64,000 nt of DNA from NCBI GenBank assembly GCA_033648345.1, contig GCA_033648345.1_4121.1; one strand, given 5' to 3'. The stretch comes from a phage. The translations under genes were made by a program, and so were the position numbers. Of this stretch, positions 7,436-62,846 are shown piece by piece. Position 1 is the first letter of the stretch. Each line of letters opens with the position of its first letter. The notes beneath the pieces are model-generated. The model searched no databases. It saw only the letters and a list, made by a program, of their open reading frames with translations, and had not been told where the DNA came from.

Positions 7436-9634
7436 ATGGCTGTCAATACAAGTGATTACCTACTACAGCAGTTGGTTAATCAAACTAAAGATAACAATGA
7501 TAGTTTGACTGCTATCCGTGAGTTATTAGCTGAAAATATAAAGAATGATAAGAAAAAATCAGGTTCAAATAGTAAAAAGAATGGTTCCAGTTCCAGTTCT
7601 TCCAGTAATCGTGGAAATCGTGGAAGTGCACAAGCCGATGACGGGAAAGCATTTGGTAAATTGTTCAAATCACTATCTTCTGAAGTTTCTAATGTAAGCA
7701 AAACAATGATGAACTCCAGTACCAACGTAAGTACTGTAGTAAACTCATTAGGCGTTAGTGCATCATCATTTGCTGGTTCATTAGCAATGATGCCAGGTCC
7801 AATTGGTGCAGCGGCAGCAGCATTTAAACTCGTTACTGGTGCTGGTCTTGCTGTATATAACGCACTTAATGCACAATTGGAAGTATATACCAGAATTAAC
7901 AGTGCTGGTGTTGCATTGGCTGAAGGTTATGGTTCAGTACTGAAAGGTGCAGGTGCATCTATGTTGAGTATGGATGCATTCAGTGAAGCTCTACAAACAC
8001 ATAGTTCTGTAGTAGCTCAATTGGATGGGGCATATGGTGATGGTGTTGCTACCTTTGGTAAATTATTAGGAACTGTTCAACAAGCTCAAAATGAACTTGG
8101 CCTTTATGGTATTTCTCAAAAAACATTAACTGATTTAACTGCAAGAAACATTAAGTTCCAAAAACAATATGGTGGTCGTGAAGCTCTTCGTAGTATGGAC
8201 CAAGCTAAAAGTACTGAACAATTCATCATGAGCATGACTAAATTCAGTAAAAGCATGGGTGAATCCGTTGATGCATTACTAAACAAAACACAAAACCTAG
8301 ATAAATCACTCGATACGCGTTCTATGCAAATTGCATTGCAGAACTACTCTGGACTATCCAGTAAAGCTGCTGTAGCAACATCTAAGGCGTTCAACGAAGC
8401 TGCGGGTGCAATGGGTGATGCAGGTGCAGATTTCCTCCGTTTGATATCACACAGATTGTCTATTGGTGGCGTACCGGATGACCTACTCACTCCAGTACTG
8501 AACCAGTTCGCTGATTTAGGTGAAAATCTTGTGCGTAGTGGTGTAACTGATTCACAAGAAATTCGTCGCCAACAATTAGAATTCGTTAAAAAGAATAAAG
8601 AATTAATTAAGCAAGATTTGCTTAACCAGATTCAATTAGGAAACACAACTGCTGCAACCTTCTACCAACAACTATTGGATATGGAAGCAACCGTAAATGA
8701 ACCTAAAAATAATCCCGCTGATAAATTAACTCAATTTACTAACCGCTTCAATATGTGGATTAGTAAAGAATTCACTGAACCATTTAATACAATGTATGCT
8801 AATACACAAAATTCAATTGTGGATTATCTTTCAGACATTGCAGACAGAACTGATGGTGCATGGGAGTTTATTGGGGAATTGGCTCTTGATGGATTTGGGT
8901 TAGTACCTATTGCTAAAGATGCAATTGCTTACCTTGATCGTATTGGTGCTGAATTTACAGCTTGGTTGGATGGATTGGGTGCAGATATATTCGGTTCAGG
9001 TTACTCTAAAGTGTCAGAAGCATTTGATACCTTTATGAATAACTTAATGGATTTACCTGGTAACCTATGGAATTCTGTTAAAAGTTGGTTCGGTGGTGGT
9101 TCTGATAATGATATAAAACTCAATAACAGTACTGAAACCCCAGCAGAAAGCGTAAACAACATCATTGACAACGGTGTAAATAGTGTTAGTGATTATTTTG
9201 CAGGGATGTGGGATAAGTTCAACAAATGGAACACCTCACGTAACTACAAAGAACCAAAACCACTACCATCTGATTATGCTGACAGTTTATTCAACCGTCC
9301 AGGAGTAGAACGTATTCGTCCTGTTATTGAAAAAACCAATAACGTTGCTCCAGAAATAACTGTATCTCGTAAAGATTTTGATAAAACTGCATGGGCACCA
9401 GGTGAACCACCAGTTCCACCAAAACCTGACGATACAGAGGCAATTAAGAAGATGATAAATAATGGTAGTGCAGTGACATCGAGAACTGGACCACCAGCAC
9501 CGATTTCTGATGAAATGAAAGAAATACTCAAAAAGCTTGCCGATGTTAATGAACAATCACTATCTGCTGTACAACAGACAAATAATTATCTAAGAACTAT
9601 CTCTGAAAACACCCAAGGTGAGAGAAACAGTTAA
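7436..9634 (+). CDS. putative virion structural protein, possibly tail tape-measure/baseplate hub (gp29-like)
   Basis: 732 aa from ATG 7436 (RBS AAAGGGA); Ser-rich low-complexity N-terminus, Ala/Gly-rich segments; late-promoter-like CATAAATATTTC upstream; sits immediately before portal gene. Confidence 0.4.
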   Translation: MAVNTSDYLLQQLVNQTKDNNDSLTAIRELLAENIKNDKKKSGSNSKKNGSSSSSSSNRGNRGSAQADDGKAFGKLFKSLSSEVSNVSKTMMNSSTNVSTVVNSLGVSASSFAGSLAMMPGPIGAAAAAFKLVTGAGLAVYNALNAQLEVYTRINSAGVALAEGYGSVLKGAGASMLSMDAFSEALQTHSSVVAQLDGAYGDGVATFGKLLGTVQQAQNELGLYGISQKTLTDLTARNIKFQKQYGGREALRSMDQAKSTEQFIMSMTKFSKSMGESVDALLNKTQNLDKSLDTRSMQIALQNYSGLSSKAAVATSKAFNEAAGAMGDAGADFLRLISHRLSIGGVPDDLLTPVLNQFADLGENLVRSGVTDSQEIRRQQLEFVKKNKELIKQDLLNQIQLGNTTAATFYQQLLDMEATVNEPKNNPADKLTQFTNRFNMWISKEFTEPFNTMYANTQNSIVDYLSDIADRTDGAWEFIGELALDGFGLVPIAKDAIAYLDRIGAEFTAWLDGLGADIFGSGYSKVSEAFDTFMNNLMDLPGNLWNSVKSWFGGGSDNDIKLNNSTETPAESVNNIIDNGVNSVSDYFAGMWDKFNKWNTSRNYKEPKPLPSDYADSLFNRPGVERIRPVIEKTNNVAPEITVSRKDFDKTAWAPGEPPVPPKPDDTEAIKKMINNGSAVTSRTGPPAPISDEMKEILKKLADVNEQSLSAVQQTNNYLRTISENTQGERNS

Positions 9635-12646: not shown

Positions 12647-13267
12647 ATGAGTATGATTCGTGAATGGTCTTCATTCAATGATTCTAAAGTTGTTTTGGAA
12701 CATCGTGATAATGGACTTGGTGGGCGTGATTGCTATCTTCGTGGTATTGCTATTCAAGCCGATCAAAGAAATTTAAATGAGAGAATTTACCCTTTAGCCG
12801 AAATTACTAAAGCTGTTAATAATATGGCTCAACGTTTGGCTAAAGGTGAAAGTATTCTAGTTGAATGTGACCACCCCGAAACACTAACAATTAACCTTGA
12901 CCGTGTAGCAGCAATGATTACTAAGGTCTGGATGGAAGGTGCTAACGGCATGGCAGAAATCAAACTACTTGATACTGCTCATGGTACTAATATTCGTAAA
13001 ATGCTAGAAGCTGGTGTGAAACTTGGTGTAAGTTCTCGTGGTTCCGGTAACGTGGATTACAATGGAATAGTTTCTGATTTTGAAATTATCACAATTGATA
13101 TTGTTGCTCAACCTAGTGCTCCAGAGGCATACCCTACTGCGGTTTTTGAATCTCTGATGAGTAAGTACGGATCACCTTGTAATAGTCCTAAAAAAATCAC
13201 AGAATCTAAAACAGTAAATAATGTAGATTCTGAAATTTACGATTTTTTCAAGAAATTAAAAGGTTAA
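12647..13267 (+). CDS. 21: prohead core protease gp21
   Basis: 206 aa, size and position of T4 gp21; motifs VECDHPE and GVSSRGSG. Confidence 0.7.
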   Translation: MSMIREWSSFNDSKVVLEHRDNGLGGRDCYLRGIAIQADQRNLNERIYPLAEITKAVNNMAQRLAKGESILVECDHPETLTINLDRVAAMITKVWMEGANGMAEIKLLDTAHGTNIRKMLEAGVKLGVSSRGSGNVDYNGIVSDFEIITIDIVAQPSAPEAYPTAVFESLMSKYGSPCNSPKKITESKTVNNVDSEIYDFFKKLKG

Positions 13268-13278
13268 CATTTTAAAAA

Positions 13279-13286
13279 TATAAATA
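13279..13286 (+). promoter_or_regulatory. T4-type late promoter core TATAAATA upstream of scaffold gene
   Basis: Exact TATAAATA about 48 nt upstream of ATG 13334. Confidence 0.5.
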
Positions 13287-13333
13287 TTTGTATGTTGAAG
13301 TACAGATATTTCAGTACTTAAAGGAGAGAACGA

Positions 13334-14449
13334 ATGTCTAAATTAGAAAAGCTTCTAAAAGAATCATCTCTTTCTGATGAGGCAAAACAGCTAATTCAGG
13401 AAGCATGGAATGAAGAAAAAAACACACTTGCCGCAGAAATGCGTGAAGAAATGAAAGGCCGCTACAAACAAGATTTGTCTGAGCTAACCGAAGGTCTAAA
13501 TACTATGGTTACTCAAGTTATCGCTGAAGAAATGGGTGCAGTATATGAAGAGAAAAAACGTCTTGTAGAAGATCGTGTAACTCTCCGCAAAACCCTAAGT
13601 AATTTCTCTGCGTTTTCTAACTCTGTTTTGGCTGAAGAAGTTAAACAAATGCGTAAAGAACGTAAGCATCTTCAAGAATGCATGGGTAAATTCGTTAATT
13701 TCTCTAACGGTATCCTAGCAGAAGAGCTAAAAGAATTCCACATCGAGAAACGTCAACTAGTTGAAACTCGCGTTAAACTACTAGCTGAAGGCTCCCGTCA
13801 AATTGCTGAAGCACGTAACAACTTCATCAAACGTACATCTGAAAGTGCTGCTAAATATATTGCAGAAACTACTCAGAAAAACCTATACGCTTTGAAAGAA
13901 GATCTTGTTGAAGCAAAACAAAATATGTTTGGTCGTAAAATCTTTGAAGCATTTGCTCAAGAGTTTAATGTCAAACAATTTAATGAGAATTCACTACTAC
14001 GTTCCCTAACTGAATCAATCAAGTCTAAAGAAGACGAAATTGCTCAAGTTAAGAAAGAACTAAATGAAACTGTAAGTGAAGTTAAAGCTGCTAAAACCAA
14101 ACTACGTATTATGGAAGATTCACAAGCTCGTAATGCGATTATGTCTGAACTAGTTAAGCCACTAACTACACAACAGAAACAAATTATGGAATCCCTTCTA
14201 GCTACTTCTCCTACAGAAAAGCTTAAAGACGATTTCAGCAAGTACCATAAGTCAGTACTTAACGGTACTAAAGTAAATGAATCTGCTACCACTCGTCAAG
14301 CAGTTCAGTCTTCCGCTAAGAGAACTCTTGCAGAAGGTAAAGTAATCACTGGCAACCGTCAGGCTATTGTTGAAAGCGAAGAAATGACCGCTGACGATAT
14401 GGCATTCCTAAAAGAACTCGATGTTCTTTCTGGTATCAATAAAAAATAA
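13334..14449 (+). CDS. 22: prohead scaffold protein gp22-like
   Basis: Glu/Lys-rich predicted coiled coil; perfect TATAAATA late promoter at 13279..13286; immediately upstream of major capsid gene. Confidence 0.6.
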   Translation: MSKLEKLLKESSLSDEAKQLIQEAWNEEKNTLAAEMREEMKGRYKQDLSELTEGLNTMVTQVIAEEMGAVYEEKKRLVEDRVTLRKTLSNFSAFSNSVLAEEVKQMRKERKHLQECMGKFVNFSNGILAEELKEFHIEKRQLVETRVKLLAEGSRQIAEARNNFIKRTSESAAKYIAETTQKNLYALKEDLVEAKQNMFGRKIFEAFAQEFNVKQFNENSLLRSLTESIKSKEDEIAQVKKELNETVSEVKAAKTKLRIMEDSQARNAIMSELVKPLTTQQKQIMESLLATSPTEKLKDDFSKYHKSVLNGTKVNESATTRQAVQSSAKRTLAEGKVITGNRQAIVESEEMTADDMAFLKELDVLSGINKK

Positions 14450-14473
14450 ACATTTTAAAGCATTTTAATAATC

Positions 14474-14505
14474 AAATTTTTCAGTTCTATAAATAATATC
14501 ATACT
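14474..14505 (+). promoter_or_regulatory. conserved late-promoter block with TATAAATA (copy 2) upstream of major capsid gene
   Basis: aaatttttcagttctataaataatatcatact. Confidence 0.6.
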
Positions 14506-14539
14506 GAAAAACGAATATAACATCTTTAAGGAGATAATA

Positions 14540-15715
14540 ATGTCACAACTACTAAATGAATCCAAATGGGTAGCAGTTAAAGAGAAACTAGTTGAAGGTC
14601 TACAAGGTACTCGTAAGTCCGTAATGGAAACCGTACTTGATAACCATCGTAAACTAATGCTAAACGAATCTGCTACTTCTGGTGCAACCACCGCTGGTAA
14701 CATCGCTACTCTAAACAAAGTGATTCTACCAATTATGCGTCGTGTTATGCCAACCGTAATCGCTAACGAAATCATCGGTGTTCAGCCAATGACTGGCCCA
14801 GTTGGTCAGATCCACACCCTACGTGTTCAATATGCTGACAACGCTCCTGGTGTTATCGCTGGTGAAGAAATGCTTTCTCCATACAAAATCGCTAAGTCTT
14901 ATACTGGTGACCTAAACGCAGACAACAGCAACCCACAAGCTGCTCCTACTAGCCAACTAGAAGGTACTATGGGTCGTCGCGTTAACATCCGTATTCTACG
15001 TGAAACTGTTGAAGCGAAATCTCGTCGTCTATCTGCACGTTGGACTGTTGAATCTGCACAAGATGCACAATCCCAACATGGTATCGACGTTGAAGCTGAA
15101 CTAATGGCTGCAATCGCTCAAGAAGTTACCGTTGAAATCGACCAAGAGCTACTAAGCCGTCTACGTGCACTACCTGGTGCTGCTGCTGTAACTTATGACC
15201 AATCTAAAGTTACTGGTGTTGCGACCTTCGTTGGTGACGAGCACGCTGCTCTAGCTACCCTAATCAACCGTCAAGCGAACGAAGTTGCTCGTCGTACCAA
15301 ACGTGGTGCTGCGAACTGGGCTGTTGTTTCTCCAACCGCTCTAACCATTCTACAGTCTGCAACTACTTCTAGTTTTGCACGTACTACTGAAGGTACTTTC
15401 GAAGCTCCAACTAACGTTAAATTTGTTGGTACTCTAAACAGCACCATGCGTATCTTCGTTGATACCTATGCAAGTGATGTTGAAGATATCCTAATTGGTT
15501 ACAAAGGTAACGCTGAAACTGATGCTGGTGTGTTCTATTGCCCATACATCCCACTAATGGCTTCCGGTACTGTAATGGACCCTAACACTGGAGAACTCGT
15601 TACAACTTTCTTAACCAGATACGGGTATGTTCAGTTGACCGATAGCACCAGTTCACTAGGTAACGCTGCTGACTACTACAGTAAAATCGCTATCAAAAAC
15701 GTTACTTTCATGTAA
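14540..15715 (+). CDS. 23: major capsid protein (gp23-like, compact form)
   Basis: gp23/gp24-family sequence throughout; TATAAATA late promoter at ~14488; strong terminator downstream; codon usage differs from neighbours. Confidence 0.85.
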   Translation: MSQLLNESKWVAVKEKLVEGLQGTRKSVMETVLDNHRKLMLNESATSGATTAGNIATLNKVILPIMRRVMPTVIANEIIGVQPMTGPVGQIHTLRVQYADNAPGVIAGEEMLSPYKIAKSYTGDLNADNSNPQAAPTSQLEGTMGRRVNIRILRETVEAKSRRLSARWTVESAQDAQSQHGIDVEAELMAAIAQEVTVEIDQELLSRLRALPGAAAVTYDQSKVTGVATFVGDEHAALATLINRQANEVARRTKRGAANWAVVSPTALTILQSATTSSFARTTEGTFEAPTNVKFVGTLNSTMRIFVDTYASDVEDILIGYKGNAETDAGVFYCPYIPLMASGTVMDPNTGELVTTFLTRYGYVQLTDSTSSLGNAADYYSKIAIKNVTFM

Positions 15716-15738
15716 TAATAAAGAATTTAAATATACTA

Positions 15739-15767
15739 GGGACTCTTCGGAGTCCCTTTTCTTTTTT
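15739..15767 (+). terminator. intrinsic terminator after major capsid gene
   Basis: gggactc-ttcg-gagtccc followed by TTTTCTTTTTT. Confidence 0.75.
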
Positions 15768-15779
15768 CAGAAAAAAAGC

Positions 15780-15808
15780 TTGACAAGTAGATTTTAATTA
15801 TATATAAT
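15780..15808 (+). promoter_or_regulatory. consensus sigma70 promoter TTGACA-17-TATAAT
   Basis: Exact TTGACA, 17-nt spacer, exact TATAAT; 36 nt upstream of ATG 15844. Confidence 0.7.
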
Positions 15809-15843
15809 TACCACATACCAAAAATCACAAAGAGACAAATAAA

Positions 15844-16950
15844 ATGCCAAAAGTAAGTATCGACAAAGAAAAATTCATTGAAGAGATGAACAACAAGTAT
15901 GGAGCATATGGTGAATTTGATTTCAGCACTTTAGTATTCAAAGCCAGTAAGACAACAGTTAAATGTAATAAATGCGGAAAAGAAAATACTAAACCTGCAC
16001 TACGTCACATTTCATGTACATGTTCTTCATGTTATTCAAACATGTCACAGCGTTCGAACAACGAAAAATTTATCAGCACGGTAGAAACTAAATTTGGAAA
16101 AGATAAATTCAAATTTGATAAACTAAATTACATTAACGCTATAACAAAAGTAACCATACTCTGCACAGACGAAGAACATAACGATTACTTTGAAATTACA
16201 CCAAACAAATTTCTTACTGGTAAGGGATGTCCTATATGTAATAAAAATGAAGCATACAGTACTGAAGAATTCGTAGAAAAAGTAAAAGAAAATTATGGTG
16301 ATTCATTAGATTTAACTAACACAGTATATGTAAATCAAAAAACTAAAGTAACTGTGTATTGTAAAGCGGGTAACCATGAATGGACAGTTGATCCGAAAAC
16401 TTTACTTGTTGGTAAGACTGGTTGTGGTACATGCTCCGGTAAAGGTGGTCGCAGTACTGAACGTTTCATTGAACTGGTATCACCTATCCATAACCATAAG
16501 TATGATTATAGTTTGGTTGAATATACTATAAGCGAGAATTATGTTGATATTGTATGTCCAACTCATGGTGTTTTCTCCCAACAACCAAAAGCACATATGG
16601 CTGGTAAAGGATGCCCATCATGTGGTGAATATGGATATCAGCCATCAAAACCTGGATATTTCTATGTTCAAAAACTAACTAATAAAGATAAGACAGTGTA
16701 CAAGTATGGAATCACTGGTGATATGAAACGCCGTGTAAATGAGCAAAGTCGTCATTCTGGTTTTGAACACACAGTACTGATAGAACGTTACTTTGAAGAT
16801 GGAAATCAACCATTACTGTTGGAAAAGTTCATAAAGAAATACATTGAAAGTGGTGTTGTAAGTACTGAAGAGTTGCCATCAGGATTTACTGAAACTTTTG
16901 ATGCTAAGTATCTTGAAAGTGTTTTAGAAATTGTAAATACTTTTAAGTAA
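15844..16950 (+). CDS. T5orf172/GIY-YIG-like domain protein with N-terminal Cys-rich repeats (homing-endonuclease-like)
   Basis: Repeated CxxC modules (KCNKCGKEN, GKGCPICNK, GKTGCGTCSGKGG, GKGCPSCGE); C-terminal YFYVQ...YKYGIT...R...E motif; own TTGACA-17-TATAAT promoter. Confidence 0.5.
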   Translation: MPKVSIDKEKFIEEMNNKYGAYGEFDFSTLVFKASKTTVKCNKCGKENTKPALRHISCTCSSCYSNMSQRSNNEKFISTVETKFGKDKFKFDKLNYINAITKVTILCTDEEHNDYFEITPNKFLTGKGCPICNKNEAYSTEEFVEKVKENYGDSLDLTNTVYVNQKTKVTVYCKAGNHEWTVDPKTLLVGKTGCGTCSGKGGRSTERFIELVSPIHNHKYDYSLVEYTISENYVDIVCPTHGVFSQQPKAHMAGKGCPSCGEYGYQPSKPGYFYVQKLTNKDKTVYKYGITGDMKRRVNEQSRHSGFEHTVLIERYFEDGNQPLLLEKFIKKYIESGVVSTEELPSGFTETFDAKYLESVLEIVNTFK

Positions 16951-16973
16951 ACAACCATAAGGAGTTGACACGG

Positions 16974-17324
16974 ATGTTAACTGTATACATTTTTAAGAAA
17001 GAAGAGTACTTAAAGAGTCAGTACTCAAAAATTGAGATTAACGTTCCATACGGGACTTTAGTTGGTTATGATGAAGCTAGTGAAACTTTGTATTATAATG
17101 ATGATAGACTGGACTATAGTATTGATTCATTTATTGAAGACATACTTAATAGTAACACTGAAGATATGTTGTATGAAGAATACTTAGATAAGTACAAAGA
17201 ACGTATGTCAAAGTTACATGCTGATGCTCCAGTACTGAACATTTCAAAAACTCCTTCTGAATTCGAGCCACAAAACCCATTCCAACGCCTAATTGATGCT
17301 GGGGTAAATTTCCGAATTACTTGA
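16974..17324 (+). CDS. hypothetical protein
   Basis: ATG 16974 with GGAG RBS; listed ORF start 16965 is a TTG. Confidence 0.45.
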   Translation: MLTVYIFKKEEYLKSQYSKIEINVPYGTLVGYDEASETLYYNDDRLDYSIDSFIEDILNSNTEDMLYEEYLDKYKERMSKLHADAPVLNISKTPSEFEPQNPFQRLIDAGVNFRIT

Positions 17325-17363
17325 TTAATAAATATCTTCATATTACTGATGGAGATATTTTCT

Positions 17364-17672
17364 ATGTCACAGATATGTTATGTTATAGTAAATGATGCAT
17401 GGCCTGATTATGTTAAGATAGGATTTACCAGTAAATCTGAAATGACAGAACGTTTAAGGACATATCAAACTGCTACACCTTTTAGAGATTTTGTGGTATA
17501 CCATGAAGTACACTTTGAAGATGCACGTTTAGCAGAGAAAGAAATTCACAAAAGACTAAAACAAATGAACGCAGTAAGGCAACCTAACACCGAGTGGTTC
17601 AAGATGCCTAAGAAGATAGCAGCGAACATCGTTGATTCTGTTCTTGACGATATGGAAAACGACTTGCTATAG
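17364..17672 (+). CDS. T5orf172 (GIY-YIG superfamily) domain protein
   Basis: Motif CYVIVNDAWPDYVKIGFT...R...HFEDA...TEWF; ATG 17364 after GGAG. Confidence 0.5.
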   Translation: MSQICYVIVNDAWPDYVKIGFTSKSEMTERLRTYQTATPFRDFVVYHEVHFEDARLAEKEIHKRLKQMNAVRQPNTEWFKMPKKIAANIVDSVLDDMENDLL

Positions 17673-17713
17673 TAATAAATATAGTATATATTAATCATTA
17701 AAGGGATTTATAC

Positions 17714-19426
17714 ATGAGCATAAGTTTTAATAACCCACTGGATACTATGACTAGTACTGGTGCTAATGGATCTTTAGAACTAATAGTGCTTGGTGGTACA
17801 CCAACTAATCCAAGACCTATTCGTTTTAATTCATCTTCTGTCATTTTACCAGTACAGGCATTGCCAGCAGGTGAGCAAGGTGCTATGGTATTTGATAGAA
17901 ATGAGTTGGTGTTAAAATACCACAACGGGACAAGTTGGATTGCAGTATACGATACTGATACAATTCTTGAACCAATCCGTATTTCACTCGATGAAGTGAA
18001 CCGTAAACTGAATTTAAAAGTTGAAACAGTAACATATAGTAGTAGTGCTGTTCCAAGTGCGAGCATTAGTGGTACGAATTTAAATATCGTATTCCCTACT
18101 CCATCAAGTAGCGGTAGTGGCCCAACAGGTCTTTACACTTCAATGAAGCCTGGTGCAATTACCCAGTACTCATTGACTTCTGGACAAACTGTTGCTAGTA
18201 TTCGTGAACAGATGTCTGGAGTAACTAATGGTCAAAGTGGTCGTAATGGTACACAAGGTTCTCCGTGGAAAACTTCTGATGGTTGGTGTTTTGCTGATGG
18301 AATGTGGTGGCAATGGGTTGGTGAAAATGGTACAATCACTAAACAAGTTCCAAATCTTAACCAAGAAGCATACTTGAAAGGCATTACCACATCAGGCGTA
18401 ACTAAAACTGATAGTGTGATTGCAAGTAGTGCATCAATTAGTGGTACTGCGATATCAATTGCTCAACTTCCACCGCACTCATTTAGTTTCAGTGGAACTA
18501 CTGGTGCTGCTGGTCGTCATGGTCATAGCCAAGCACTAAAAGGTATGGACAGAAGTGGTCTTAATGCGTTAACATCCAGTAACGACAACGGAATCCCAAC
18601 TGTAATTAATAACATTAACGAAGCACCTGATCACGTGCATAGTTTCAGTGGTTCTACGAATACTGTTGGTAGTGGTCAAGCACACAGCCACGGAATTAGC
18701 AATATTGACGTACCACACTTTAATGTGGCATACTTATATAACATTGCAGAGTCTAACGTTGCATTGAGTGAAAAAGTTGCAAACACCCGTTATGTACTGA
18801 AAACTGGTGATACAATGTCTGGTTCATTGACTATTGCTAACAGTGCAACAATTCGTTCGAATGATACTTCATTAGTACTTTACTTCCGTAACGCTACTAA
18901 TGGTGAACGTGCAGCAATTTATCATAATTCATCTAACAATACATTACGTTTGAGAAGTAATGGTGGTTCTGAAGTTTCTATCAACTCTTCAGGTGTACTA
19001 ACTTCCCCATCGTTAGTTGTTAGTTCTAACTCTGCAACAGTTTCTGGTAAAAACATTGTACGTTCAGTTAACGGTACTGCGGCAGATGCAAGTGGTAATG
19101 TAACTATATCTACCACAACAACTTCTGCGTCATTGACACAAAATGGCTGGCATAAAGATAACAATACTGGTATGATTACCCAGTGGGGATACTTAACTGT
19201 TGGTGACGACTCTTATGTTACTGTAAACTTACCAGTTGCATATCCTAATGCTTGTTTAAATCTACAAGTAACTGGTAGAGTATCCAGAGCACCAGGTAAC
19301 CGTACTTCATTTGCTGGTCATGGTAACATTTTAAGTAACTCACAAATTGCTGTTGGTGCAGCTAACCCTGGTAGTGACGGTGACCACAATGGGCTAGGAG
19401 TGTACTGGACAACAATTGGTTATTAA
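17714..19426 (+). CDS. putative tail fibre / receptor-binding protein
   Basis: Ser/Thr/Gly/Asn-rich 570 aa with HxH motifs (HGHS, HVHS, HSHG) as in T4 fibre tips; late-promoter-like AATAAATA upstream. Confidence 0.5.
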   Translation: MSISFNNPLDTMTSTGANGSLELIVLGGTPTNPRPIRFNSSSVILPVQALPAGEQGAMVFDRNELVLKYHNGTSWIAVYDTDTILEPIRISLDEVNRKLNLKVETVTYSSSAVPSASISGTNLNIVFPTPSSSGSGPTGLYTSMKPGAITQYSLTSGQTVASIREQMSGVTNGQSGRNGTQGSPWKTSDGWCFADGMWWQWVGENGTITKQVPNLNQEAYLKGITTSGVTKTDSVIASSASISGTAISIAQLPPHSFSFSGTTGAAGRHGHSQALKGMDRSGLNALTSSNDNGIPTVINNINEAPDHVHSFSGSTNTVGSGQAHSHGISNIDVPHFNVAYLYNIAESNVALSEKVANTRYVLKTGDTMSGSLTIANSATIRSNDTSLVLYFRNATNGERAAIYHNSSNNTLRLRSNGGSEVSINSSGVLTSPSLVVSSNSATVSGKNIVRSVNGTAADASGNVTISTTTTSASLTQNGWHKDNNTGMITQWGYLTVGDDSYVTVNLPVAYPNACLNLQVTGRVSRAPGNRTSFAGHGNILSNSQIAVGAANPGSDGDHNGLGVYWTTIGY

Positions 19427-19523
19427 AAAATATTGAGACAACTTTTAAAGTAGTGATACAATGTAGTCATCTTACAGCGGTTGTGAGATGACATTTTTTC
19501 AAAACACATGGAGAAGCAAACAA

Positions 19524-19829
19524 ATGGCAAAAGCTAAAAAAGAAGTTAAAGTTGAAATTCGTGACCTAAATGATGAACAACGTAAACGTCTAGGTGATGC
19601 ACTAAACAACGCAGTAGTACAACTTACTTTTATTGACGACACCAAAGCATCCTATGCAGATTTCATTAGTTCCATCTCTGATGAACTAGGTATTGATGCA
19701 TCCGATATCAAACAAGCCGCTCAACGTATCTACAAAGGCGATTACTTTGATAAACAAAACAAACTCGATAACATCGAAACTATCCTAAGTGTTACTAACA
19801 ATTTACCACAAGCAGATGACGATTACTAA
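19524..19829 (+). CDS. hypothetical protein
   Basis: ATG 19524 after GGAG; early-type promoter at 19432..19461; terminator downstream. Confidence 0.5.
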   Translation: MAKAKKEVKVEIRDLNDEQRKRLGDALNNAVVQLTFIDDTKASYADFISSISDELGIDASDIKQAAQRIYKGDYFDKQNKLDNIETILSVTNNLPQADDDY

Positions 19830-19911
19830 TAAGTACTAAAAACTAAACTTTATAGCCTCCAATGAATGGGGGCTTTATTTTTAACTTAATAAACGTAAAG
19901 GAATACAAACG

Positions 19912-22900
19912 ATGTATATCGATGCTTATATGGAACGTAAACGTACTGGTGATATTTTGCACGTAGCAGAACGTAAAAACGGTAAACGTATTCTACGTCA
20001 GTTGGACCCAGTATATGAATATTATGTTGAATCTCCTACTGGTGAACACAAAACAATTTATGGAACCAACGCAAAGCATTTGGAGTTTGAAACTCAATCA
20101 CAGATGAATAAAAGCGTTGAGCAACATAAAAATGAAGGTCTACGTATTTTTGAAAGTGATTGCAACATTACCTTCAAAACGTTGGCTAGAGAATACATGG
20201 GTAAAGGTTCGCCGGATTTGAACGTAGCATTTTTCGATATCGAAACCGACTTCCATAAGAAGTTTGGTTATGCTCCACCATCAGATCCATTCAACCGTGT
20301 AACTGCAATTTCTCTATATCAATCATGGACTGGTAAGGATTATGTACTTACTTTGCCACCAACTGATATGGAAATGTACGAAGCACAAGATATTGTTCGA
20401 CAGTTAAACGAAGAAACTAACGACCCTAACAGTACTGTCATCCTTTATACGGATGAGAAAGAAATGTTTATGGAGTTCTTTAGTCTAATCGATGACTCTG
20501 ATGTAATTTCAGGTTGGAACAGTGAATTCTTTGATATTCCATATATGGTAAACCGTACCAAGAAAATCTTCAACGAAGCAACTACTGCTCGTTGGTGTTT
20601 GTGGAATAAAAAACCAAATGCTCGTGAAGCTGATAACTTTGGTAAAACTGTAGTAACATATGATCTTATTGGTCGCGTACACTTAGACTATCTTGCTCTT
20701 TATAAGAAACATGCTGGTCAAGTTGAACAGTCGTACAAACTAGATTATATTGCTGAAAAAGTAACTAAAGAAAACAAAGTATCCTATGAAGGTTCATTGG
20801 ATAAACTATACCGTGAAGATTACATTACATTCTTGCGTTATTCTAAGCAGGATAGTATTCTTCTAAAGAAAATTGATGCTAAATGTGACTTTATCAACCT
20901 GCACAACCGTCTTGCTCATAAAGAATGTGTACTAATTAGTACTACAATGGGTTCGGTTGCACTAATCGACACTGCTATCATCAACCTTGCTCACAGTCGC
21001 GGTGAAGTTGTTTTTAACAAAGCACCGAAGGATGATTTTGAGTTAGATCCAGAGATGGAGTACTATGGTGAAGAAGGTGATGAAGAAGATGAGAAAATCA
21101 GTGCAAAAGCTGCTGGTGCATGGGTTCAAGATCCAGTTCTTGGCCTTGTTAGCGATTTGGGATGTACAGACTTTAACTCATTGTATCCAACTGTACTACG
21201 TACACTTGGCATGAGTACTGAATGTATTCTTGGACAACTTCGTCAAGACTACACTGATGCATATCTTGCTGCTAAAGTACAAGAGCAAAAAGCTAAATCC
21301 AAATCTAAAGCGTTTGAACCTGATTGGACCGCTGCATGGCATGGTTTATTTGCTGCTGTAGAATTTACAATGGTTCATGAAAAATCTGACAAAACTTTGA
21401 TTGTTGATTTAGAAGATGGTAGTTCGTTCAATGCAACTGGTAAAGAATTGTATGATATTATCTTTGCTGAAGACAGTACTATTGTACTAAGTGCTAACGG
21501 AACACTTTTTGATAAGTCTAAGTATGGTGTAATTCCAGATATTCTTACTCAATGGTATTCTGAGCGTAAAGCACAACAAAAAATGGTAATCGACTACAAA
21601 CACATGTACAGTGATGGGTGGGAATTCAATGGTTCTGAGAAGGTTGAACCTTTGCTATCTAACTACACAAGTGGTACAATGTTCCGTACAAACTTACATG
21701 ACAATGATCCTGTTTACCTATTACGTATTGCTATTGGTAAAGGTCAATGGGAAGAAGTTGCAAAACTCATTGTGGAAAATGGTTTAGTACTGAAAGATGG
21801 TCGTATTTTCTGTGCAACGGAAGATAAGAATTACTTCAAACAGCAAAGTGCATTCTGGAAACAGAACCAGCAAATTCGTAAGATTCTTCTAAACAGTCTA
21901 TATGGTGCACTATTGAACAAAGGTTCACGTTTCTTTGATAAGCGTTTAGGTCAGTCCGTTACCTTAACTGGTCGTTCTATGACTAAACATATGGCAAGCC
22001 GTATCAATGAAATCACTACTGGTGTTTATAATCACCAAGGTGGCTCTGTAATTTACGGTGATACTGACTCCGTTTACTTCAGTGTAACTCATTACCTGAA
22101 AGAACAAGGTATTCCATATAATCTTTCGAAAGAAGAAATCGTTGACATGTATATCAAAATCGGTGATGAAGTTGGTGAATCATTCCCTTCATTCATGAAC
22201 GAAATGTTCAATACTGGTATTGAGAAAGGTAAGATTGTTGGTGCAGACCTAGAGATGGTCGGTTCCCGTGGTCTATTCCTGAAGAAAAAGCGTTATGCAA
22301 TTCTCAAGTACTGGGAAGATGGTTTCCGTAAAGATGTTGATGGAAAGCCTGGTGAAATTAAAGCGATGGGTCTTGAAATTAAACGTTCAGATACGCCAAA
22401 ATACATCCAGAACTTCCTAGAAGAGACTCTAATTGCATTGCTGGTGGGTGAGTCTGAAGCTCAACTTAAACAGCGTGTACGTGACTTTAAAGAGGTATTT
22501 AAAGACATGCCTGTACACGAAAAGGGTTCACCGAAAACTGTTAAGAACTATACCAACTTAGAAGCAGAATATGAAGTTTCTGGTAAATGTAAAGTTGGTC
22601 ACGTATTAGCAGGTATTCAATGGAACCGTCTACGTGAAGTATATGATGACAAAACTGTACCTGAAGTAACTGACGGTACAAAAGTAATTGTATGTAACTT
22701 AAAAGATAACCCGATGGGTATCAAAGCAGTAGGTTATCCAATTGACTGTGTGGAATATCTACCTGAATGGTTCTTAGAACTACCATTTGATACAGAGAAA
22801 ATGGAAGAAATAGTTCTAACTAAAAAATTAGAAAACATTTTTGGTATTCTGGATATGGATATTGGTATTCATGAGAAAAGTACAGCAGCCGTTAATAACG

Positions 22901-61519: not shown

Positions 61520-61714
61520 ATGACTGACAAAACCTTTTATGATCGTATTATTGAAGACAAGGGTGTTTTCGATAAAGTTGTTTATGACTTAGAACTTATG
61601 ATCAAAGACGCACCAAATCCACGCGTGCGTACTCAAGCAGAGTTTGCTAAAACTTATCTAGTGCAAGTTCAAGCAATCTGTGAAGCAATTAAAAAACATA
61701 ATGATAGTGCTTGA
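61520..61714 (+). CDS. hypothetical small protein
   Basis: 64-aa ORF; stop overlaps -35 of downstream promoter. Confidence 0.4.
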   Translation: MTDKTFYDRIIEDKGVFDKVVYDLELMIKDAPNPRVRTQAEFAKTYLVQVQAICEAIKKHNDSA

Positions 61715-61739
61715 CAGAACATTAGTTCTTAACTATAAT
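61711..61739 (+). promoter_or_regulatory. consensus sigma70 promoter TTGACA-17-TATAAT upstream of IF3 homolog
   Basis: ttgacagaacattagttcttaactataat. Confidence 0.65.

Positions 61740-61783: not shown

Positions 61784-62846
<1,063 letters not shown>

Follow-up and report, generated by a model that had tools for sequence, protein, structure and literature searches.

The window, by which we mean the whole stretch of 64,000 nucleotides (nt) of phage DNA that was analysed (contig GCA_033648345.1_4121.1), contains downstream of its major capsid gene an open reading frame for a protein of 368 amino acids (aa), ORF-A, preceded by its own consensus sigma-70 promoter. Both lie in a slot between the terminator of the capsid transcript and a small gene, ORF-B, which is followed by ORF-C and a tail-fibre gene. 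We consider it likely that ORF-A and this promoter represent a T5orf172-class gene of the homing-endonuclease type, free-standing and lodged in the slot, and that ORF-B and ORF-C are residents of the locus that were inherited vertically. The original prediction, made from the letters of this DNA, had described a selfish insertion of two genes, ORF-A and ORF-C, with a promoter. The sequence features it listed are all there at the positions given. The interpretation holds for ORF-A and the promoter, for which presence and absence, allele turnover and lateral transfer can be seen, and fails for ORF-B and ORF-C, which are present also when the slot is empty.

The junction between the capsid gene and the tail-fibre gene was compared among related phages, a check proposed together with the prediction: ORF-A is present in some phages and absent from others, and ORF-B and ORF-C are always retained. 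The slot is empty in the phages fEgEco12, PBECO4 and CMSTMSU, where the start codon of ORF-B follows 39–48 bp past the terminator, and five further records with match spans of about 5.2 kb like those of the empty-site phages are probably empty as well. ORF-A is sporadically present at a fixed site among close relatives, and together with its promoter it is the only insertion at the locus. At least seven other nuclease alleles take the place of ORF-A in phages with flanks 97–100% identical, and elsewhere at least eight different occupants are found in the slot, besides the empty sites. Endonuclease genes turn over at this intergenic slot, which makes it a hot spot, and this behaviour is the most useful additional result of the analysis. 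In Cronobacter phage GAP32 the occupant of the slot (L017 3756–3989) is a gene for 77 aa, which according to its annotation resembles the C-terminus of a protein of phage JSE and may be left over from an earlier occupant. Relatives of ORF-A were found by tblastn in 1,058 phage records, often in several copies per genome; within the 64 kb window there are no paralogues of ORF-A, ORF-B or ORF-C at E ≤ 1.

The ORF-A cassette has also moved laterally into a divergent background. ORF-A of phage A4 is 97% identical to that of the window, as against 77–83% for the A4 flanks. The tract shared by both phages extends from 15683 to about 16800, contains 7 mismatches over its 1.1 kb and spans the capsid stop codon, the spacer, the terminator, the promoter and codons 1 to about 319 of ORF-A; outside this tract the identity is 82.6% for ORF-B, 77.3% for ORF-C and 61% for the N-terminal part of the fibre. 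Phage Turkey3 has flanks nearly identical to those of the window and a divergent segment at about 15450–16850. Its capsid gene is identical up to about 15450 and then carries 18 nucleotide changes in the last 265 nt, only one of them changing an amino acid. The capsid gene is the left neighbour of the element and lies outside of it, but its final ~265 nt fall within the exchange tract. This divergent gene end looks like co-conversion of the flank, such tracts being indirect signs only as regards cleavage and super-Mendelian inheritance.

The right-hand breakpoints lie inside the nuclease domain of ORF-A near its YFEDG block, and alleles with 45–65% identity elsewhere are ≥93% identical over the final 150 nt of ORF-A. 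Therefore it is the promoter together with the zinc-ribbon array that is swapped between alleles. A smaller exchange is suggested by the comparison with Escherichia phage BF17: the two ORF-A proteins are 100% identical and 13 of 13 nucleotide differences are synonymous, but 12 of them cluster in 16416–16482, where BF17 seems nearer to the allele of WPEC5 and Ecwhy_1, suggesting that gene conversion between endonuclease alleles left a short patch. We also considered whether the block 13000–15700, which shows about 94% identity to phage 121Q as against a baseline of about 85% over 27 kb, starts inside the protease gene and ends at the slot, is a co-conversion tract of the endonuclease. This was rejected as evidence, as the ORF-A alleles of 121Q and the window are 86% identical and the block is similarly conserved relative to all distant relatives. 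Constraint on the scaffold and capsid genes through codon choice or expression accounts for the block equally well, and we dropped it; such constraint or an old exchange tract could be its origin.

The original prediction had assigned to ORF-A four CxxC-type repeats and a C-terminal T5orf172-like domain, and both were recovered. By alignment there are four tandem repeats of about 62–72 aa each with pairwise identities of 18–32%, containing five CxxC motifs: repeat 1 has a CxxC plus a CxCxxC, and repeats 2–4 have an upstream Cys and His and one CxxC each. Every repeat consists of a helix, a short hairpin with terminal Cys and His, and a GxGCPxC knuckle, and the repeated hairpin–helix pattern is visible in the AlphaFold2 model of ORF-A (pLDDT 86). 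The cysteines 107/129/132, 173/194/197 and 238/257/260 are invariant among 40 homologues. With ORF-A the Pfam models DUF4379 (23.9 bits) and DUF723 (19.1 bits) score slightly below their cut-offs; CapR, DUF723 and DUF4379 are above cut-off in several other slot occupants. PF05265 is assigned to nearly all homologues of ORF-A, among which there are also precomputed matches to PF10544 and PF13455. The zinc-ribbon array is predicted to be a DNA-recognition array.

The domain search that had been proposed for a nuclease-type domain detects one in ORF-A as well as in ORF-C. The whole ORF-A protein matches PHROG 681 (‘endonuclease’) with E = 1.6e-77, and its C-terminal domain shows the motifs GYFYV, YKYGIT, RR (296–297), LEKF (E327) and TETF (E350). 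The predicted structure has a GIY-YIG fold, a three-stranded sheet with flanking helices (beta-beta-alpha-beta-alpha core), and matches SLX1 and I-TevI. A Foldseek comparison of ORF-A with viral models (BFVD) returned 239 proteins at E ≤ 0.001, named CapR-homology, T5 Orf172, GIY-YIG or zinc-ribbon. The ORF-A family and the T5orf172 family of ORF-C match in a profile–profile comparison (hhalign, E = 5e-5), and in this alignment the YFEDG and HFEDA blocks, which the prediction had pointed out as common to both domains, lie opposite each other. Direct BLASTP between the two domains yields no alignment; as only the profile–profile comparison matches them, they are remotely related. R297, E327 and E350 of ORF-A align in the profiles with R35, E63, E65 and E82 of ORF-C, and these Arg and Glu residues would be equivalent to R27 and E75 of I-TevI. 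Invariant among the ORF-A homologues are Y274, K287, G289, R297, E327 and E350; in all, 26 columns of the family do not vary, those of the Cys ligands and of the Arg and Glu residues among them. All alleles keep an intact reading frame, and the ratio of nonsynonymous to synonymous substitution rates (dN/dS) is 0.09–0.16; therefore the protein is maintained and not decaying. Sequence searches of PDB chains with ORF-A, ORF-C and the ORF-C family profile gave nothing meaningful, no NCBIfam model matches ORF-A, ORF-B or ORF-C, and the PADLOC defence models gave no real match to ORF-A.

As predicted, the capsid-gene terminator is followed by a perfect TTGACA-17-TATAAT element. The terminator stem AGGGACUC-UUCG-GAGUCCCU spans 15738–15757 and runs into a stretch of T; its predicted folding energy is –15.6 kcal/mol (z = –3.35), and none of 200 shuffled sequences folded equally well. 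Each of the 16 related loci that were compared keeps the hairpin, those of Turkey5, ph0011, EJP2 and Munch with changes in loop or stem. Being common to occupied and empty alleles, it defines where the slot begins on the left. In the window allele the 22 nt that separate the capsid stop codon from the terminator (15716–15737) differ from those of most relatives. The promoter begins 13 bases past the T-run and matches the consensus at 12 of 12 positions, with a spacer inside the accepted range of 16–18 nt and a predicted transcription start at about 15815. Perfect matches of this kind occur twice in the window, where 0.03 are expected, and no shuffled sequence reached two. The promoter is missing at the empty sites, and most other slot occupants possess their own sigma-70-like element (a –35/–10 pair or at least a TATAAT-like –10) directly 3′ of the shared terminator. 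The promoter is therefore part of the ORF-A cassette and not of the resident locus. According to the junction comparison the cassette carries, besides the promoter and ORF-A, a new ribosome-binding site for ORF-B. There is no strong terminator between ORF-A and position 19466, and the cassette promoter therefore probably reads through into ORF-B, ORF-C and the fibre gene. Regarding a group I intron or another structured RNA as vehicle, no Rfam match at E ≤ 1 was found within 14000–20000; the ORF-A gene is free-standing and intergenic.

Motifs of the T4-like late-promoter type (TATAAATA, CTAAATA and AATAAATA) are found 5′ of the head genes, ORF-C and the fibre gene. Where the slot is empty, TCTAAATACA occurs 25–35 nt 5′ of ORF-B; it is lost where a cassette is present. 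The replaced leader of the empty sites contains CTAAATACA, a motif similar to this phage's late-promoter-like elements; this point is speculative.

The small open reading frame and the stand-alone T5orf172-domain gene which the prediction had placed downstream of ORF-A are ORF-B and ORF-C. The prediction would be contradicted by these genes being conserved core genes in related genomes; this is found for ORF-B and ORF-C only, and the interpretation of ORF-A stands. ORF-B adjoins the terminator in the empty-site phages fEgEco12 and PBECO4, is retained whatever the slot holds, and lies outside the insertion as a resident that appears to be vertically inherited. It belongs to PHROG 15724, of unknown function, with dN/dS values of 0.05–0.21, and has no Pfam or NCBIfam match. 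Its AlphaFold2 model reaches a pLDDT of 65.7, and Foldseek against PDB gave nothing below E = 0.5 and weak SH3-like hints only. Its C-terminus (17274–17324) reads P-x-NPFQRLID-x-G, with NPFQRLID invariant in 12 of 12 homologues, one of them only 50% identical, and looks like a short interaction peptide.

ORF-C scores 50.6 bits with the Pfam model T5orf172 (PF10544; cut-off 20, E = 3e-13, profile positions 2–99 of 101) and 48.8 bits with MUG113 (cut-off 22.3). Its start is probably at 17364, because the orthologues begin with MSQICYV. Counting matches at ≥60% identity, ORF-C is 60–100% identical across 63 jumbo-phage records from several genera; it occurs once in each of the best 60 records listed and keeps its position in every locus inspected. 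The carriers infect Escherichia, Salmonella, Klebsiella, Cronobacter, Pectobacterium, Serratia, Yersinia, Erwinia and Xanthomonas and include GAP32, CBB, Serratia phage BF, Yersinia phage fHe-Yen9-04, Erwinia phages and Xanthomonas phage XaC1; the next-nearest relatives are genes of T5-like phages with 30–45% identity. Y11, K23-I-G25, R35, E63, E65 and E82 are invariant, and with dN/dS values of 0.00–0.06 purifying selection is as strong as on the capsid gene. ORF-C is retained also where the slot is empty (fEgEco12, PBECO4). It has neither a sporadic distribution nor a DNA-recognition domain, there being no region outside the nuclease domain, and since it lacks a DNA-binding extension it is not a homing endonuclease gene. 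Our best guess from its sequence is a domesticated or housekeeping nuclease. We rejected ORF-C as a member of a defence system: its PADLOC matches to the candidates PDC-S57 and PD-Lambda-1 are confined to their T5orf172 part, a similarity at the domain level.

How such a gene might spread can be outlined as follows. The terminator would insulate the cassette, and host RNA polymerase would transcribe it early, apart from the late capsid transcript. The four zinc-ribbon modules could bind a long target in a co-infecting relative with an empty slot or another allele, the likeliest target being the stretch of about 40 bp which the cassette replaces or conserved sequences beside that stretch. The C-terminal GIY-YIG-like domain would cleave this target, and repair templated by the cassette-bearing genome would copy the cassette and some flank, for example the 3′ end of the capsid gene. 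A genome that carries the cassette no longer has the presumed target and would thus be immune to its own nuclease.

Several observations weigh against a homing endonuclease. For the T5orf172 model of Pfam ORF-A scores only 17.8 bits, under the cut-off of 20; we nevertheless keep the assignment because of PHROG 681, the profile–profile match and the GIY-YIG fold. A canonical GIY…YIG pair is not found, the first motif being FY/CY (Y274 in ORF-A, Y11 in ORF-C) and the second Tyr being replaced by Lys (K-[YI]-G; K287-Y-G289 in ORF-A, K23-I-G25 in ORF-C). This K-[YI]-G form is the usual T5orf172 variant, and the non-canonical motif of the domain has been noted before (PMC8096241); on account of the Lys we file ORF-A and ORF-C in the T5orf172 branch and not with the canonical GIY-YIG enzymes. 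The right-hand breakpoints lie inside ORF-A and not in ORF-B, and part of the turnover may be ordinary homologous recombination instead of break-initiated homing. Promoter function is predicted solely from the match to the consensus. In the literature examined we did not find homing of any zinc-ribbon-type T5orf172 gene. Finally, most related phages hold some allele and all alleles are under purifying selection, which also fits a useful, domesticated gene.

This last point leads to a reading which we regard as rather unlikely, namely that ORF-A is a domesticated relative of homing endonucleases that serves the phage, either as a DNA-binding regulator of late genes in the neighbourhood, like CapR or the autorepressor I-TevI, or as a nuclease against competitors or satellites, like Odn, in which case an arms race instead of homing would lie behind the variation at the locus. 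Both kinds of co-option have precedent in this protein class (PMC8096241, PMC8263062, PMC10448857), and the diversification is concentrated in the zinc-ribbon array, as changing targets would produce. However, phages with 98–100% identity elsewhere are viable with an empty site, nucleases of at least two unrelated types are found in the slot, the catalytic-type residues do not vary although a pure DNA-binding regulator would not need them, and the defence models give no match. Domestication and homing are not mutually exclusive. That ORF-A is an inactive remnant, kept because deletions at the site are rare and preceded by a functionless promoter match, would agree with the sub-threshold Pfam score and the non-canonical motif. 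We find this hardly credible in view of the intact frame and low dN/dS in all alleles, the 26 invariant columns and the exclusively synonymous differences from BF17; moreover, the chance expectation of perfect promoters is about 70-fold below the number observed, and most alleles keep a promoter. It is also very improbable that ORF-A, ORF-B and ORF-C are a single block of selfish cargo, although the three genes are enclosed by two structural genes, T5orf172-type domains occur in two of them, and the cassette promoter would read through all three. Against this, ORF-B and ORF-C persist where ORF-A is absent, the exchange tracts end inside ORF-A and exclude both, and ORF-C is a single-copy gene at a fixed position across genera that is under strong constraint. 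A further idea seems unlikely to us: several nuclease families without relationship to one another could use the junction between capsid terminator and ORF-B as a dedicated landing pad, with each cassette deleting the leader of about 40 bp with the late-promoter-like CTAAATACA and putting ORF-B and ORF-C, possibly also the tail fibre, under an early host-type promoter, and ORF-C could be an anciently domesticated endonuclease domain, essential in all these jumbo phages. If this were true, turnover of the endonucleases would change when a core stand-alone T5orf172 nuclease is expressed.

The window derives from an Asteriusvirus-type jumbo coliphage. The region is 99.5% identical to phage BF17 and 85–96% identical to 121Q, PBECO4, Turkey3 and similar phages, and the gene order capsid gene, slot, ORF-B-like gene, ORF-C, tail-fibre gene, small gene, DNA polymerase gene is preserved out to GAP32 and XaC1. 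ORF-A, ORF-B, ORF-C and the tail-fibre gene are consecutive on one strand, and the minus-strand open reading frames of the interval are short and overlapped. The features and the occupants of the slot are compiled in the following table.

Table. Positions of the features of the locus in the window, and occupants of the slot in the phages compared
Feature	Position or carrier	Strand	Description
ORF-A	15844–16950	+	368 aa; free-standing T5orf172-type (GIY-YIG superfamily) putative homing endonuclease
Zinc-ribbon repeats of ORF-A	15844–16641	+	four in tandem, CapR/DUF723/DUF4379-type; aa 1–72, 73–138, 139–204, 205–266
Nuclease domain of ORF-A	16642–16947	+	C-terminal, T5orf172/GIY-YIG-like; aa 267–368
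Terminator of capsid transcript	15738–15767	+	intrinsic; 8-bp stem, UUCG loop, T-run
Promoter match	15780–15808	+	perfect sigma-70 type; TTGACA 15780–15785, 17-nt spacer, TATAAT 15803–15808
Cassette-specific DNA	15766–16973	+	relative to the empty site of fEgEco12: 1,208 bp in place of 39 bp
ORF-B	16974–17324	+	116 aa; conserved resident gene; likely start ATG 16974 behind AAGGAG
ORF-C	17364–17672	+	102 aa (107 aa from 17349); stand-alone T5orf172 domain; conserved resident gene
Major capsid protein gene	14540–15715	+	T4 gp23-like; Pfam Gp23 E = 9.5e-90; PHROG 138
Tail-fibre gene	17714–19426	+	PHROG 13229 E = 2e-244; Gp53-like_C domain; right-hand context, outside the element
Late-promoter-type motifs	window 11735, 12618, 13279, 14488, 17328, 17675; related loci L002 2290–2300, L003 2298–2308		
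Slot: 368-aa allele	window, BF17		group with capsid protein and ORF-C 100% identical
Slot: 305-aa allele	WPEC5, Ecwhy_1		three repeats; 63% nt identity; capsid protein and ORF-C 100% identical
Slot: 300-aa allele	EC.P1		57% nt identity; capsid protein and ORF-C 100% identical
Slot: 332-aa gene	TH47 (L015 2355–3353)		zinc-ribbon/T5orf172-like; 29% aa identity to ORF-A; capsid protein and ORF-C 100% identical
Slot: none	fEgEco12		capsid protein and ORF-C 100% identical
Slot: 365-aa allele	Turkey3		86% nt identity; capsid protein 99.7% identical
Slot: 406-aa gene	Turkey5 (L012 2332–3552)		CapR+DUF723+DUF4379+MUG113; more distant relative
Slot: 532-aa gene	ph0011 (L014 2360–3958)		other nuclease type: DUF7487 and weak restriction-endonuclease-like match; more distant relative

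Some further observations concern the neighbourhood. The C-terminal part of the tail fibre (18700–19500) is a swapped module, about 90% identical to Turkey3 and WPEC5 and 74% identical to BF17, which is otherwise 99–100% identical to the window despite its different fibre end. The window fibre (570 aa, Gp53-like_C end) is without the downstream tail-fibre assembly gene that is present in BF17, 121Q and PBECO4. A linkage between the ORF-A allele and the type of fibre C-terminus was considered and rejected, as BF17 has the same ORF-A and the other fibre end. A further variable spot lies at 9001–9500, with about 63% identity to 121Q amid surroundings of 80–90%; BLAST aligns nothing at 9098–9325. 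The second perfect TTGACA-17-TATAAT of the window (61711–61739) is located 45 nt 5′ of a 167-aa open reading frame (61784–62287) matching translation initiation factor IF-3 (TIGR00168, 100 bits, cut-off 60); by this match the phage would encode an IF-3 homologue and express it from a host-type promoter.

The locus amounts to a clean natural experiment, in which identical capsid and flanking genes are combined with an empty site or with endonuclease alleles that differ in the number and sequence of their zinc ribbons. The slot is therefore a convenient system for testing whether T5orf172 zinc-ribbon endonucleases home, and its alleles could reveal how tandem zinc-ribbon arrays specify their targets. 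Annotators should note that ORF-C, the nearby ‘GIY-YIG’ gene, belongs to the conserved core of this jumbo-phage group and is no mobile cargo.

I-TevI (structure 1LN0) and SegA–G of phage T4 are GIY-YIG endonucleases with an N-terminal nuclease, the Seg proteins being free-standing. In ORF-A the order of the domains is reversed, with the nuclease at the C-terminus, the DNA-binding modules are of another kind and KxG stands for YIG; searches of PDB chains found no similarity of ORF-A to this type at the sequence level. ORF-C resembles the UPF0213/YhbQ family and T4 endonuclease II in being a single nuclease-type domain without a DNA-binding extension (about 100–135 aa), but it belongs to the T5orf172/MUG113 branch and has no detectable sequence similarity to them. 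Annotated counterparts are gp604 (‘endonuclease’) and gp606 (‘GIY-YIG nuclease family protein’) of 121Q (RefSeq NC_025447), orthologues in the same positions with 88.6% aa identity to ORF-A and 89.7% to ORF-C, respectively. For these two we found in the literature annotation only and no experimental or comparative analysis, and in the Asteriusvirus literature no published description of the locus.

PLE CapR is a repressor of the capsid operon of phage ICP1 and consists of the DNA-binding module alone (PMC8096241). ORF-A shares with CapR the Cys-based zinc-finger DNA-binding module and the link to the capsid gene, and the Pfam model CapR matches other slot occupants and, weakly, the 121Q orthologue; in contrast to this repressor, ORF-A retains a full nuclease domain with invariant catalytic-type residues. 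The T5orf172 domain of ICP1 Odn (Gp88) cleaves DNA in vitro and needs a conserved Glu, the exchange E180A abolishing the activity (PMC8263062). ORF-A has the same kind of catalytic domain with conserved Arg and Glu. Odn, however, has a RepA_N DNA-binding domain, targets the replication origin of a satellite and, not being a mobile gene, serves in defence (PMC8263062), whereas ORF-A has zinc-ribbon repeats and shows presence/absence variation.

The T5orf172 homing endonuclease genes described by Barth, Dunham & Seed 2023 (PMC10448857) contain arrays of CapR/DUF723/DUF4379 zinc fingers in variable number and are usually free-standing; a capsid gene was present in 31% of the T5orf172 gene neighbourhoods surveyed, and recombination between alleles produced mosaics. 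Like Gp53, Gp121, Gp130, Gp165 and Gp174 of ICP1 (PMC10448857), ORF-A combines N-terminal zinc-finger modules of variable number with a C-terminal T5orf172 domain, and like the ICP1 genes it is free-standing beside an essential or capsid gene, shows mosaic recombination and lies at the boundaries of exchange. ORF-A differs from the ICP1 genes in its four repeats and in its Asteriusvirus-type jumbo coliphage background, a lineage not highlighted by that paper, and the slot alleles bring their own sigma-70-type promoter behind the capsid terminator. To sum up, ORF-A is an ordinary representative of the class that these authors have described.

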